A DNA stretch of 64,000 bases from assembly GCA_963847445.1 (NCBI GenBank), contig CAWJZV010000009.1:64001-128000 (forward strand), in the 5' to 3' direction. The stretch's first letter is position 1; the number at the start of each line of letters is the position of its first letter. The DNA is from an uncultured delta proteobacterium (GTDB lineage Bacteria > Desulfobacterota > Binatia > UBA9968). Positions 21,665 to 27,031 of this stretch are shown here, in pieces. The notes beneath the pieces are model-generated. The model made no database searches and was not told where the DNA came from. It saw nothing but the letters and a program-made list of their open reading frames with translations. A program made the translations under genes and the position numbers.

Positions 21665-22750
21665 ATGCCAAACAAAATCTTAATCGTCGACGATGAACCG
21701 TTCAATCTCGATCTGCTCGAACAAGAGCTGATGGAGTACGAATATGTCCTCGAGCGCGCCACCGACGGCATCGACGCGCTGGCGAAAGCTGATAGTTTCA
21801 GTCCGGACATCATCCTGCTCGACTACATGATGCCGAGGATGAACGGCCTCGAAGTCGTCAGGGCGCTACGGCAGAGCGAGCGCCACAAGAGCGTGCCGGT
21901 GATCCTCTTAACCGCCAAAGCGACTCAGGAAGACAAGATCGCCGGCCTCGACGCCGGCGCCGACGATTATGTCACCAAGCCGTTCGATTCTTTCGAGTTA
22001 TTAGCGCGGGTGCGCGCCATGCTGCGCATCAAAGAGCTGCACGACCAACTGGGCGACTGGAATCGCACGCTGGCGGAGAAAGTTCAGCAACAAGTCGGCG
22101 AGCTCAAGCGCATGGAGCGTTTGAAACGCTACCTCTCGCCGCAAATCGCCGAGACCATCCTGGAGAAAGAAGAAAACCTGTTCAAAACCCATCGCCGCGA
22201 GATCACCGTGGTGTTCCTCGACCTGCGTGGCTTCACGGCGTTCTCGGACAATGCGGAGCCCGAGGAGGTCATGGACCTTCTGCGCGATTATCACGCCGAG
22301 ATGGGCAAGTTGATTTTCCAATTTGAAGGCACACTGGAACGTTTCGTCGGCGACGGCATCGTGGTGATCTTCAACGATCCGCTGCCCTGTGAAGACCATG
22401 GCCGCAAAGCCGTCAGCATGGCGATCGAGATGCGCGACCGGGTGAAAGAACTGCGTATCGCGTGGACGAAGAAGGGCTACGATCTCGACCTCGGTGTCGG
22501 CTTAGCCACCGGCTACGCGACCTTGGGCACCATCGGTTTCGAGGGACGCATGGACTATAGCTCGGTCGGTAATTTGCCAAATCTCGCGGCGCGCATGTGC
22601 GCCGAGGCCAAGGGCGGACAGATCCTCACCGACCAAAAAACCATGAGCCGGTTGGAAGAGTTCTTCGATAGCGAAGCCTTCGAGGAATTCCAATTGAAAG
22701 GACTAAGCCGTCCGGTGCGAGTGTTTAATATCGTCGCAACGAAGGCGTAG
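21665..22750 (+). CDS. Response regulator-class III adenylate/guanylate cyclase
   Basis: REC domain then [38 protein letters not shown]. Confidence 0.92.
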
Positions 22751-23114
22751 CGGCAATCCCTCCGTGTCACGCTGTCTGCGTCAGAGGTTTTTTTTCCTTG
22801 TCTGCGCCTACTTCAAATTTCGCAACGCGAACCAATTTCCTGCCAGCTTCCGAGTGACAGCGATCGCGTTTCCCATCTGAGTTAGCTTCTATCAGCGCGA
22901 TTCTACGCGACGCGAATGATGATTTTTCAAAAATTGGCCGGGCAATCTTTCTCCAGCGTCATTACAACGCGGCATGGGATCAAGTTTCACGAATAAAACA
23001 ACGCGTCGTTAAATTGTAACGCGTCGTTGCAAGCAAACTCTATCAAGACATCGTAGTTCGGCGCATGCGAATAGAAAATTTTCGGAAAAAAAATTGTAGA
23101 ATAGTATTTTTTTC

Positions 23115-23144
23115 TTGACATACTATTAATTGTGTCATTATACT
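23115..23144 (+). promoter_or_regulatory. Near-consensus sigma-70 promoter with overlapping inverted repeat
   Basis: TTGACA-18-TATACT, AT-rich upstream tract, TGACA-N12-TGTCA palindrome. Confidence 0.8.
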
Positions 23145-23258
23145 CTGCGCAGGTACAAAATATGGGAGGGTTGCTGATAGTAAACTGTCTTCGCCTGAGT
23201 CAAGCTGTTCTTCCTATCAAGAAAATACCCGCCCGTTTAATCTTACAAGGAGGTGCTT

Positions 23259-23306
23259 ATGGCAGCTAAGAAAAAGGCCAAAAAGAAAGCCAAAAAGAAA
23301 AAGTAG
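23259..23306 (+). CDS. 15-aa Lys/Ala-rich micropeptide MAAKKKAKKKAKKKK
   Basis: Extended SD AAGGAGGT immediately upstream of the ATG, own promoter and terminator. Below the ORF-track length cutoff. Confidence 0.72.
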   Translation: MAAKKKAKKKAKKKK

Positions 23307-23391
23307 TCAATTAGTTGTGGGGTTGTGGTGGTGGTAGTATAAACCCTCCTTACTCTCAGGCGACCAGATAACCGTTCTGGTTATCTATCAC

Positions 23392-23431
23392 AGAAGCCCT
23401 CCGGAGATGATTCGGGGGGCTTTCTGCTTTT
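23392..23431 (+). terminator. Rho-independent terminator
   Basis: AGAAGCCCTCCGGA-GATGA-TTCGGGGGGCTTTCT followed by GCTTTT. Confidence 0.8.
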
Positions 23432-23591
23432 AGAAACTACGTTTCCATAATTCTTGAGCGTCTCAGACCGGCATATCGCCAACATAGCAACGAGTTTTAC
23501 CTGGCCTGCTCATGGGAACCAATTTACCGCGGTGCCGGTTGCATCAGTGTCCTTATTGCGCCGCTTTGAACAGTTGGTTAGAGTGTCGCGA

Positions 23592-24167
23592 ATGTCTAAG
23601 ATCAAGCCTCCGCATATTTACTTGGCTCTCTGTCTGGTTCAGCTGATTTTTCTCGGCTGGACAGCTCGCGCCGGCGACGCCGCCGAGTCCTCAAGCAAAG
23701 CCGACTACAAAGCGGTGCCGATTCTCCAGCCGATGAAAGAGGTCGCGCCGACGCCGGAAATCAATCTCACCACACCCGACGGCAAAAAGATTTCTTTGCG
23801 CGACTTTCGCGGCAAGATCGTTATGTTGAATTTTTGGGCCAGCTGGTGCGTCCCTTGCCGCGAAGAGATGCCGGCGATGGAAAAGCTCTATCAAGAATTT
23901 AAGGACAAAAACTTTGTCATCCTCGCGGTGGCGGTCAAAGATCGCAAACAAGACGCCGTCGATTTCGTCAAGGAACTCAAGCTCACCTATCCAGTCGCCC
24001 TCGATCCAGAGGGGAAAGTCGGCCAGGAATATGGCGCTTGGGGATTGCCCGCGACCTATCTCATCGGTCCCAAAGGCGAGGGTTTGGCGCGCGGTTGGGG
24101 ACCGGCGGAGTGGCATGGCGCGGGCGCGCGTAAACTGATCAAAGACTTGGTCGACGGCAAGCGATGA
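23592..24167 (+). CDS. TlpA/ResA family thiol-disulfide reductase
   Basis: NFWASWCVPCREEMPAM, N-terminal TM/signal, GLPATYLI. Confidence 0.9.
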   Translation: MSKIKPPHIYLALCLVQLIFLGWTARAGDAAESSSKADYKAVPILQPMKEVAPTPEINLTTPDGKKISLRDFRGKIVMLNFWASWCVPCREEMPAMEKLYQEFKDKNFVILAVAVKDRKQDAVDFVKELKLTYPVALDPEGKVGQEYGAWGLPATYLIGPKGEGLARGWGPAEWHGAGARKLIKDLVDGKR

Positions 24168-24901: not shown

Positions 24902-24991
24902 CAGCTAGTTTGTTTGACCCGTCACAGGCTAAATGTTAGCTTTTTGAAACTTAACTCTAGGTCAATGAGTCCCGCCAACAGCGGAGCAATC

Positions 24992-25541
24992 ATGGAAGAA
25001 CAGATTCGGCAAATTCTCAAAGCCATCGGCGAAGATCCCGAGCGTGAAGGACTGCTTAAAACGCCGCAGCGCGTCGCTGAAGCACTGGCCTTTTTGACCC
25101 GCGGTTATGACATGGACCCTGAGAAGGTGATCAACGATGCGCTGTTTACCGAAGATTACTCGGAAATGATCGTCCAGCGCGACATCGATTTTTACTCGTT
25201 GTGCGAACACCACATGTTACCGTTCATCGGCAAAGCTCATGTCGCCTACATTCCGCATCATAAAATTGTCGGTATCTCCAAACTCGCCCGGCTGGTCGAC
25301 ATTTATGCGGCCCGCTTGCAAGTCCAAGAGCGCATGACCAACCAGATCGCCACGACGATCATGGAAAAACTCGACGCCCTAGGTGTCGCCGTGGTGCTCG
25401 AAGCCGAACATCTGTGCATGCGCATGCGCGGCGTGGAAAAACAGAACTCCTACGTCATCACCAGCAGCTTTGCTCGGCGCCTTTCGGACCCGCCAGGAAA
25501 CCCGCGCCGAGTTCATGAATTTGATCCGGCGCAAGGATTGA
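24992..25541 (+). CDS. folE: GTP cyclohydrolase I (frameshift near 25468)
   Basis: [41 protein letters not shown]. The shifted frame gives [23 protein letters not shown]. Confidence 0.92.
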
Positions 25542-25552
25542 GCGAGAGCGCC

Positions 25553-27031
25553 ATGATGGAAATCCGTTTTCGCGATAGCACCGCTGACCGCATAAAATCC
25601 GACTTGGTCGTTATCCCCGTGCGCGATAAGCAGCTCGACAACCCGGCGCTGCGCGCCCTCGACCGCCATCTCAAAGGCCAGCTGCGCGCGCGCATGAGCA
25701 AAAGTAATTTCACCGGCGCCGAAGGCAGCGTTTTGCTGCATCCGACCGCGGGCATGCTGCCGGCAGCGTATCTGTTGCTCGTCGGTATCGGCGCTGGCGA
25801 AACCAGTGGCGACACATGGCGCAAGGCCGGCGCCAAGGCGCGCAAAGAAGCCGGCGCCATCGGTGCCGGCGAATTCGCCATGCTCTTGACTGCGGAAAAC
25901 AATCTCGAGAGCGCCGCCGGCGCCATCGTCGAAGGCGCCGCACTGGCCGGCTATCAGTTCAACAAATATCGATCGAACGGCAAGCCCGCTACGGCACTGA
26001 ATCGTTTGACCCTGTTTCGTTCCGGTTTAAAGAAAACCAGCGGGTTGCAGAAATCGGTAGATATCGCGCAAGCCACCGCGCCCGGAGTTTTCCTGGCGCG
26101 CGATTTGGTTAACGAACCGCCGTCGGTGGCGACGGCAAAATTTCTCGGCGCCCAAGCCCAGCGCGCCTGCCAAGGCCGCGGTCTATCGGTGGAAGTGTGG
26201 AACAAGAAAAAAATCGAGGCGATGAAGTTAGCCGGCCTGCTGGCGGTCAATCGCGGCAGCTTGGAAGAGCCGCGCTTCATTCGTATCCGCTACCGGCCCG
26301 CCGGCAAAGCGCGCAAGCGCGTCGCGCTGATCGGCAAAGGCATCACCTTCGACTCCGGCGGCCTGTCGCTCAAGCCGTCGAAATCGATGGAGACCATGAA
26401 GCTCGACATGGCCGGCGGCGCCGCGGTCATCGCCACCATGAGTTGCCTGCCCAAGTTGGGCCTCGATATCGAGGTCACCGGCTACGTGCCGACCACCGAC
26501 AATTTGCCGGGCCATAATGCGCAGAAGCCCGGCGATGTCATTCGTTATATGAACGGCAAGACCATCGAAGTGTTAAACACCGACGCCGAGGGCCGCTTGA
26601 TTCTCGCCGACGCGCTCGCTCTAGCGGCGCAACAAAAACCCGACTACATGATCAATCTGGCCACGCTGACCGGCGCCTGCATGACCGCTCTCGGCACGCA
26701 GGTTGGCGGCATCTTCAGCAACCACCAGCCGTTGGCGGACAGTCTGCTGCGGAGCGGCCAGGAAGCCGGTGAAAAACTCTGGCAACTGCCGCTGGTGAAG
26801 GAATATAAAGAGCTGATCAAGAGCGCTGTCGCCGACATGAAAAACATCGGCGGCGCCCATGGCGGCGCCATCACCGCGGCGCTGATCCTGCAGGAGTTCG
26901 TCGGCGACACCGCCTGGGCCCATCTCGACATCGCCGGCCCCGCCTTTGCCGAAAGCGACAATCTGCTCGGTCCCAAAGGCGGCACCGGCTTCGGCGTGCG
27001 CACGTTAATAAAATTTTTGCTGAGTCTTTAA
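25553..27031 (+). CDS. pepA: Leucyl aminopeptidase (M17)
   Basis: [33 protein letters not shown]. Confidence 0.94.

Follow-up and report, generated by a model that had tools for sequence, protein, structure and literature searches.

To our knowledge, few bacterial mRNAs are known in which functional pairing joins the untranslated regions (UTRs) at the 5' and 3' ends, for example icaR and hbs. A tiny open reading frame (ORF) enclosed by pairing between distant 5' and 3' parts is also found in type I toxin mRNAs such as hok and aapA1, whose alternative folds engage segments like the Shine-Dalgarno sequence (SD) and anti-SD-like ones. Braun, Durand and Condon reported in 2017 that the hbs mRNA of B. 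subtilis, which encodes the histone-like protein HBsu, combines a strong SD with a 5'/3'-UTR interaction of 14 bp, that this interaction modulates cleavage by RNase Y and that stability is linked to translation initiation (PMC5737220). In the icaR mRNA of S. aureus, as Ruiz de los Mozos and colleagues reported in 2013 (PMC3868564), the 3'UTR motif UCCCCUG pairs with the SD. Here we describe a locus of an uncultured delta proteobacterium of the Binatia, which lies in a 64,000-nucleotide (nt) stretch of contig CAWJZV010000009.1 (positions 64,001 to 128,000, called the window below, in whose numbering all coordinates are given). A preliminary description of this DNA had proposed that nested 5'-3' pairing encloses a micropeptide ORF and could mask its SD. 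The region 22700-23900 was examined by eye, and 23150-23431 was folded as the transcript of a plus-strand unit. Taken as a whole, we consider it reasonably probable, on the evidence of sequence comparison, that this stand-alone unit of ~280 nt is the UTR-closed mRNA of a 15-codon oligolysine gene, whose product would resemble the polycationic tail of histone H1. It is a previously undescribed RNA family of uncultured Binatia.

The micro-ORF (23259..23306, plus strand) starts with the ATG at 23259, continues with 14 more codons and ends with the TAG at 23304-06. Its product, MAAKKKAKKKAKKKK, is composed of 11 lysines, 3 alanines and the methionine, without a hydrophobic segment. Because it falls below the 20-amino-acid (aa) minimum of the ORF lister, it was derived from the sequence and with a script. 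The SD, AAGGAGG (23247..23253, plus strand), stands 5 nt ahead of the ATG, and its complement is found at the 3' end of the 16S rRNA of the same genome, which reads ...GGATCACCTCCTTTCT. We aligned 70 homologous loci and used 69 of them for pair counts, leaving out L006, whose 5' end coincides with a contig end. All 70 retain the SD, the ATG and an in-frame stop, and the columns of the SD and the ATG are invariant in the 69-sequence alignment. The peptides have 12-19 aa and, after the initiator methionine, contain only K, A, T, V and R, while the ORFs differ in length by whole codons. Among their 705 lysine codons, 391 are AAG, 314 are AAA and none is AAC or AAT, and the third base of the alanine codons is free to vary. 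Since lysine is written only as AAA or AAG and the length changes comprise whole codons, the codon pattern is that of selection on the peptide rather than on an A-rich RNA tract. The same two features, together with the retention of the ORF in 70/70 loci and the invariant SD and ATG, argue that the micro-ORF is a translated gene.

Long-range pairing around a tiny ORF with a strong SD would also be expected of an mRNA of the hok/aapA kind, silenced by fold-back of its 5' and 3' parts, and the preliminary description had drawn this analogy while remarking that the peptide is not hydrophobic as type I toxins are. The remark is borne out by the composition given above, and the analogy fails on peptide chemistry, copy number and distribution: the element occurs once per genome and is a core gene of the whole class. 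In addition, no minus-strand promoter-like site faces the ORF, as the sole one found in a consensus scan (23121-23093) is directed away from it. We regard a type I toxin mRNA as extremely improbable here.

The three complementary pairs that had been listed, TGATAG (23175-80)/CTATCA (23385-90), TCGCCTGAG (23191-99)/CTCAGGCGA (23355-63) and AAGGAGG (23247-53)/CCTCCTT (23345-51), all on the plus strand, are each perfect in the window, and the homologues conserve the main helices. Over the alignment, RNAalifold retains three helices, namely a closing helix b:b', a hairpin P3 and the terminator. The closing helix joins element b, (U)CGCCUGAG (23191..23199, plus strand), as its 5' arm to element b', CUCAGGCG(A) (23355..23363, plus strand), as its 3' arm, with a core formed by CGCCUGAG at 23192-99 and CUCAGGCG at 23355-62. 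The full 9 bp are canonical in 95.8% and the 8-bp core is paired in 98.9% of cases. The proposal that long-range 5'-3' pairing surrounds a genuine micro-ORF is upheld in this respect. Element b is part of the minimum free energy (MFE) structure with a probability of being unpaired of 0.06, and the b:b' duplex energy is -17.0 kcal/mol. Hairpin P3 (23366..23386, plus strand) consists of AGAUAACC, the loop GUUCU and GGUUAUCU. Seven of its eight pairs are changed on both sides among the homologues, 97.6% of the cells are paired and the loop is conserved as GUYCU; the fold AGATAACC/GGTTATCT, earlier listed as a competitor, is this covarying hairpin. The outermost TGATAG/CTATCA pair fared differently: it is canonical in 35.5% and intact in 3/69, and since it is so rarely intact and overlaps the 3' arm of P3, which it would destroy, we attribute it to chance. 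Two further competing folds were likewise not upheld, as GGGAGGGT/ACCCGCCC has a central A.G mismatch already in the window and is intact in 0/69, and TGATAG with the CTATCA at 23214 reaches 39.4% and is unconserved. The consensus that the family shows for P3 and the adjoining flank, ACAAGGTAGCCGT, recurs as 13 nt in the 16S rRNA of the same genome (L155 3018-3031), just ahead of helix 45 and the anti-SD. We considered P3 as a mimic of the 16S rRNA 3' domain and rejected it; the window copy, ACCAGATAACCGT, differs and the stem covaries freely, and the match is probably a coincidence.

Within the genome it comes from, the element occurs once. Full-length homologues were found in 76/90 genomes and in 22/23 genera of the window's family, including 29/31 high-quality genomes. 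When one genome per prokaryotic species was scanned with an exact pattern, 60 loci were recovered, nearly all from metagenome-assembled genomes labelled Candidatus Binatia or Deltaproteobacteria; the other labels were Syntrophobacter/Syntrophobacteraceae (six) and Chloroflexota, Verrucomicrobiia and Eisenbacteria (one each). A class-level blastn search gave full-length matches in the window's family only and elsewhere matches to the SD-plus-ORF part only. This search is incomplete, since it scored 0/3 in family f3, a genome of which carries a full element of the family type (L194). The pattern SD-ATG-(A/P)..KKK-A occurs in 160/401 genomes and 18/20 families, and the reversed pattern used as a control in 1 genome; some of the matches are other lysine-rich N-termini, such as that of a SWIB-like gene of the same genome. 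This second gene (L192 738-1040, minus strand; contig C46 of genome G000) starts with MAAAKKKAPAKKKAAAKKK and runs on into a SWIB/MDM2 domain, of which it covers the first 29 positions (E = 0.0013, below cut-off); beyond that part it looks frameshifted. As read from these sequences, the gene of the window is a member of a Lys/Ala-rich small-protein family of 12-106 residues that is present in most Binatia families.

In other families the module consists of a promoter of the TTGACA/TATAAT type and a leader, a strong SD with the ORF, and a 3'UTR and terminator. The ORFs begin with MAAKKKA, MPAKKKA or MAVRKKKA, extend over 21-106 Lys/Ala-rich codons and stand at variable spacing from the terminator. 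In each of the other families read, a segment of the 5'UTR has its complement in the 3'UTR, just ahead of the terminator, and these helices differ in sequence: GCCUGUGAGAGAGGGG/UCCCUCUUUCCAGGC; CUCGCCUGAGA/UCUCAGGCGAG; GUGCCUGUG..GAGAGGG/CCCUCUC..CACAGGCAC; UCUGAGAGAGAGGGA/UCCCUCCUCUCAGA; CUUCCGCCUU/GAGGCGGAGG with the variants CCUCCGCCUCACAGU/AUUGUGAGGCGGAGG, CUAUCGUUUU/GAAACGAUAG and GUCGCUUU/GAAGCGAC; and UUCAGCAGC/GCUGCUGAA together with UCCAGCAGCAG/CUGCUGCUGGA. That closing helices of different sequence recur across families is what chiefly leads us to regard closure of the ORF by its UTRs as the selected feature. The closing helices read in these families do not involve the SD, whose own pairing was left unscored there. 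In family f9, helix 1 is paired in 93.6% and 4/10 of its pairs are compensatory; the terminator columns of that alignment are misaligned. Gapped duplex folding of the whole UTRs of the other families gave over-long duplexes with z from -2.1 to +1.1 and was uninformative.

The unit has expression signals of its own. The promoter (23107..23144, plus strand) consists of a T-tract at 23107-23113, the -35 box TTGACA at 23115-23120, an 18-nt spacer and the -10 box TATACT at 23139-23144. It scores 11/12 in the consensus scan and is, by its sequence, a strong sigma-70-type promoter with a T-tract; the TTTTTTTCTTGACATAC block and the -10 box are almost unchanging across the 70 loci. Transcription would start at about 23150-23152, and in our reading of the region a leader of ~100 nt precedes the SD and a 3'UTR of ~85 nt follows the TAG, both on the plus strand. 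The consensus scan placed an intrinsic terminator at 23393..23431 (plus strand), with a stem of 13 bp (23393-23423) and a U-rich tail behind it, and 6/9 pairs of the stem covary in the alignment. As a whole, the scan gave 2 promoter-like sites against 1.5 in shuffles, and the terminator scan likewise gave no excess over shuffles, so the weight of both calls rests on conservation.

Several sequences upstream of the promoter were also noted. A direct repeat, AACGCGTCGTT, occurs twice with a distance of 7 nt in 23000-23039; it was rejected as a conserved element, being present only in the window's genome among the 30 relatives checked. A word like GAATAAAAC (22988-22996 in the window) is found in ~50 related loci; in most loci of the family its distance to the promoter T-tract, upstream of which it lies, is constant at 116-119 nt. 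It was ruled out as the terminus of a conserved ORF and may be an upstream regulatory site. Loci of other Binatia families (L142-L146, L148, L149 and L151) have in common a word of the TGAACGNCATTYTAGG type, which precedes the promoter of their lysine-rich gene and stands ~200 nt before the ORF.

Metatranscriptomic data agree with the extent of the unit. Of 24 listed runs, 20 contain all or part of the element stretch, among them six RNA libraries. Four RNA libraries from three studies were compared with 22950-23650 (701 nt). They yielded RNA contigs of 209-243 nt covering 23183-23425, 23194-23402, 23171-23373 (depth 221) and 23174-23390, besides contigs of relatives, and in all four runs no RNA contig lies outside 23164-23425, the flanks being uncovered. 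The contig ends vary by run (23373, 23390, 23402 and 23425); such contigs prove neither ends, strand nor termination, and RNA libraries can contain DNA. With these limits, coverage that is confined to the predicted unit in all four runs, two of which have only 32-35 million letters, fits an abundant discrete transcript. In the contig of depth 221, sequencing-adapter letters stand directly before 23171, which is a hint of an RNA end that is frequent there, within element a, the G-tract described below, or immediately behind it. It is because of its own promoter and terminator, its single copy, its differing neighbours and the confinement of the RNA contigs that we read the unit as stand-alone.

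Near the 5' end, element a, GGGAGGGUU (23164..23172, plus strand), forms an SD-like G-tract within the nearly invariant UACAAAAUAUGGGAGGGUU. It is complementary to the 23342-50 part of the anti-SD-like element a', AACCCUCCUU (23342..23351, plus strand); the terminator's 5' arm offers a second complement, as GCCCUCC (23397-23403) there repeats the a' motif. Potential partners of a' are a, the SD and a GU-rich tract of the 3'UTR, with duplex energies of -16.1, -11.3 and -10.4 kcal/mol, respectively; a local CU-rich tract of the leader, element c (CUUCCU, 23210..23215, plus strand), is the predicted partner of the SD (-9.9 kcal/mol). Helix a:a' is paired in 95.8% over 9 bp and, over the 8 bp listed earlier, is canonical in 95.1% and intact in 54/69, so the competing fold GGAGGGTT/AACCCTCC of the preliminary description, which is this helix, stood as far as conservation is concerned; one pair is changed on both sides. 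It crosses b:b', and the two formed together would make a long-range pseudoknot. The ensemble and MFE calculations ignore pseudoknots and ribosomes; within them, the fold with a:a' and the fold with b:b' are nearly isoenergetic (-82.6 vs -83.4 kcal/mol).

The masking of the SD, as originally proposed, would make the element a switch, in which the 3'UTR CCUCCUU (23345-51) lies on the SD within the closing helix and silences the ORF until a:a' or a processing event releases it. The two segments have perfect 7-nt complementarity in the window and are nested in b:b'; their GGAGG/CCUCC core can pair in 69/69 homologues and the full 7 bp in 42/69 (93.2% canonical), and the near-equal energies of the a:a' and b:b' folds are what a switch requires. 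The adapter at 23171 hints at an abundant 5' end behind a, and icaR (PMC3868564) is a precedent for 3'UTR-SD pairing. Against this, imposing b:b' and SD:a' together gives -75.5 instead of -83.6 kcal/mol, a cost of 8.1 kcal/mol, and the probability of SD:a' is above 0.3 in 1/69 homologues. None of its pairs covaries; three depart through unpaired cells alone, and of the outer A-U pairs one is broken in 19/69 and the other in 11/69. The same substitutions at the 3' end of CCUCCUU preserve pairing with the first G of the 5' GGGAGGG, changing G.U to G-C or A-U. The SD is instead predicted to pair with upstream CU-rich sequence of the 5'UTR at P > 0.5 in 46/69 homologues, is mostly free (P > 0.5) in 4/69 and has a mean unpaired probability of 0.23. 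In the ensemble of the window's own transcript, c pairs with 23248-53 at P of ~0.75; its conservation by column is no more than 74%, in a part that aligns loosely. In several other families, the CCCUC tract of the 3'UTR pairs not with the SD but with a GAGGG directly 3' of the b-type arm, so that one continuous helix results, while in the window's family the G-tract stands 5' of b rather than 3'. This arrangement beside the closing helix favours a:a' over SD:a' as the equivalent contact. The calculations thus lend no support, within the model, to the 3' tract as partner of the SD, and we consider the masking switch unlikely.

Returning to the UTR-closed mRNA that we favour, we propose the following mechanism. 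A 5'UTR segment would pair with the 3'UTR just upstream of the terminator, so that the SD and the ORF come to lie inside a closed loop, and a second contact is probably made by the 5' GGGAGGGUU (23164-72) with AACCCUCCU (23342-50). The 5' G-tract would thereby hold the anti-SD-like CCUCC of the 3'UTR away from the true SD, which would be at most weakly masked, by the local CU-rich tract. By analogy with the hbs mRNA, closure may control the lifetime or processing of a short, heavily expressed mRNA and couple it to translation. The peptide would be a small polycation like the tail of histone H1 that acts on nucleic acids. The existence of one 5' G-tract GGGAGGGUU with two CCCUCC copies, in a' and in the terminator arm, and a competing SD also allows a multi-state riboregulator to be imagined. 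Its fold would sense the occupancy of the SD by ribosomes, or the polylysine product bound to the closing helix or the GU tract, and its output would be termination versus read-through, or processing, as might have produced the putative 5' end at 23171. We give this little credence; if it were true, the element would be a self-contained RNA-peptide feedback unit, conserved phylum-wide and abundant in environmental RNA.

The complementarity of a to the terminator bears on a further explanation, an attenuator in which a pairs with a' or, as antiterminator, with the terminator arm, and in which translation of the ORF or SD occupancy decides on read-through into tlpA-ccdA. Of the duplexes tested, that of a with the terminator arm is the strongest (-18.5 kcal/mol); it is nested with b:b' and keeps 7 bp intact in 53/69. 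When folding was carried only as far as the terminator loop, it had P > 0.5 in 50/69, in a calculation that ignored pseudoknots and so handicapped a:a'. CCCTCC is found in the 5' arm of 0/86 strictly defined terminators of the genome, the consensus scan shows no promoter-like site from the terminator to the tlpA start, and a run of lysine codons resembles a leader peptide. On the other side, 9/69 sequences have a central A.C mismatch to a that is compensated by the terminator's own 3' arm, so it is the terminator that is the selected structure. The stop codon stands 86 nt ahead of the terminator stem, and in other families the ORF has up to 106 codons and the spacing to the terminator varies.

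The genomic neighbourhood also speaks against attenuation, as the downstream gene is inconstant and at times lies on the other strand. In the window, a TlpA-like redoxin and a CcdA/DsbD-type membrane protein are encoded downstream and a response-regulator cyclase upstream. Over 90 neighbourhood loci, which are two overlapping sets with some genomes counted twice, the nearest downstream ORF is of the TlpA-like cluster in 41, alpha/beta-hydrolase-like in 17 and CcdA in 12; in several loci it is on the opposite strand. The neighbours in other families are enolase, DivIC, ExbBD or hydrolase genes. No lysine-related gene was seen among the neighbours of the loci checked, and in none of them was the downstream gene one of lysine biosynthesis. 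A lysine attenuator is probably not what this element is, and attenuation of any kind seems to us quite unlikely. Further downstream, at 24914-27031 (plus strand), a single 705-aa ORF seems to join a GTP cyclohydrolase I-like part and then a leucyl-aminopeptidase-like part, as judged by eye from its translation.

A GU-rich tract, GUUGUGGGGUUGUGGUGGUGG (23315..23335, plus strand), is conserved within the window's family. It lies there in the 3'UTR, and it is near-identical in the 5'UTR of a locus of another family (L197), directly before the closing helix. GU-like tracts occur in several further families and are absent from the f9 and f10 loci read; we found neither a partner nor a function for the tract. 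The GG runs of the tract could, by sequence, permit a two-tier G-quadruplex. A U-tailed terminator hairpin is typical of Hfq-type small RNAs (sRNAs), and the present unit has one. It might be a dual-function RNA whose conserved single-stranded GU-rich, CU-rich and (AAR)n tracts act in trans, either by base pairing, like an sRNA, or by titrating an RNA-binding protein as a sponge. UTR conservation beyond the needs of the helices, the retention of the GU tract between families despite its move between 5'UTR and 3'UTR, and the assembly of the RNA from small metatranscriptomes (32-44 million letters) would agree with such a role. Opposed to it, no target or protein partner was identified, the A/G-only third base of the lysine codons marks the A-rich run as selected for coding, and the f9 and f10 loci do without the GU-rich tract. 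We hold a function in trans to be rather improbable.

Known families gave little further indication for either the RNA or the peptide. The Rfam 15 covariance models had 0 matches at gathering score in the whole window, as the proposal of an undescribed RNA had anticipated; a permissive search of 23050-23500 gave 5 chance-level matches (E 1.1-5.4; 9-14 bits against cut-offs of 50-233). Among five longer relatives of the peptide, Pfam matched one only, an 88-aa protein to HC2 (PF07382) with E = 8e-5 and 23.2 bits against a gathering cut-off of 40, and none of the other four; NCBIfam gave only E values of 0.19 and 0.46. A protein search with a 40-aa relative against 5.8 billion proteins, over lengths of 22-70 aa, returned 3 word-sharing candidates, none of which scored. 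As this search was empty-handed, the oligolysine gene is one that gene callers overlook. We found no paper on the element or on polylysine micro-genes of Binatia in the literature listings that were searched.

Several points weigh against the UTR-closed oligolysine mRNA and limit the confidence that we place in it. The single-sequence fold of 23150-23431 only marginally beats shuffles, with an MFE of -83.6 kcal/mol against -74.0 +/- 4.7 in 200 shuffles (z = -2.02). Of these shuffles, 7/200 fold as well; 8-10 bp helices are also frequent between shuffled UTRs. For this weak fold, the meaning of the pairs had to be judged on the relatives. There, b:b' is near-invariant in the family, and its covariation amounts to two compensatory pairs in 4 sequences (C-G to U-A in 3, A-U to G-C in 1). 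Helix a:a' has one compensatory pair, and its pseudoknot with b:b' is beyond joint scoring by the folding programs used. In the other families, the best ungapped helix is reached by <=2/50 shuffles in only 6/35 loci, and many of the helices are unremarkable, such as that of L142, which 21/50 shuffles match. The compensatory pairs of f9 all come from one 3-sequence sub-clade, and a whole-structure shuffle control was not exceeded. Conservation of the UTRs, at UACAAAAUAUGGGAGGGUU and the GU-rich tract, exceeds what the helices need, which points, as far as sequence goes, to additional interactions. The likeness to HC2 is compositional and below cut-off, with four further homologues lacking any match, and control of stability by the closing helix is proposed by analogy.

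Binatia are a globally distributed, uncultured and methylotrophic phylum. If the UTR-closed mRNA is read correctly, they maintain a dedicated oligolysine mini-gene with strong expression signals, and its hundreds of natural sequence variants would make it a good system for studying the effect of UTR closure. The element is short enough for synthesis and direct probing. It also bears on the cellular role of the encoded oligolysine, which might be binding to the nucleoid or the ribosome, or that of a polyamine-like counter-ion.

Compared with known systems, the element shares with hok and aapA1 a tiny ORF in long-range 5'-3' pairing and alternative SD-like/anti-SD-like folds; unlike these, it encodes a hydrophilic polycation, is a single-copy core gene of its class and has no evident antisense RNA. 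It resembles icaR in a C/U-rich, anti-SD-like 3'UTR tract that is complementary to its own SD, and such a duplex would be a potential substrate of RNase III, but the Binatia tract has a better partner in the 5' GGGAGGGUU, and its pairing with the SD is disfavoured and non-covarying. With regard to the product, Hc1/Hc2 of Chlamydia and the Hc2-like proteins of Burkholderia (PF07382, NF038052, NF038053) are alike in Lys/Ala low complexity and variable repeat number, whereas the window peptide has 15 residues and only the one 88-aa relative matches, below threshold. bTHX, bL37, bS22 and eL41 are ultra-short polybasic ribosomal proteins that are strongly expressed. The oligolysine peptide is similar to them in size range (15-35 residues), in being nearly all basic and in its strong expression signals; neither a sequence relation to them nor a link to the ribosome was seen. 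The closest working analogue is the hbs mRNA. There is no sequence or protein homology to hbs, the product being a 15-residue unstructured polycation and not an HU fold, and any part played by the helix, or by RNase Y and RNase J1, in Binatia would be conjectural. Both are nevertheless short, highly expressed mRNAs with a strong SD for a small basic protein of nucleoid type, and in both a long-range 5'UTR-3'UTR helix encloses the ORF (14 bp in hbs, 8-16 bp in Binatia). What would be new here is that a UTR-closed bacterial mRNA architecture, known from hbs, serves a micro-polycation.

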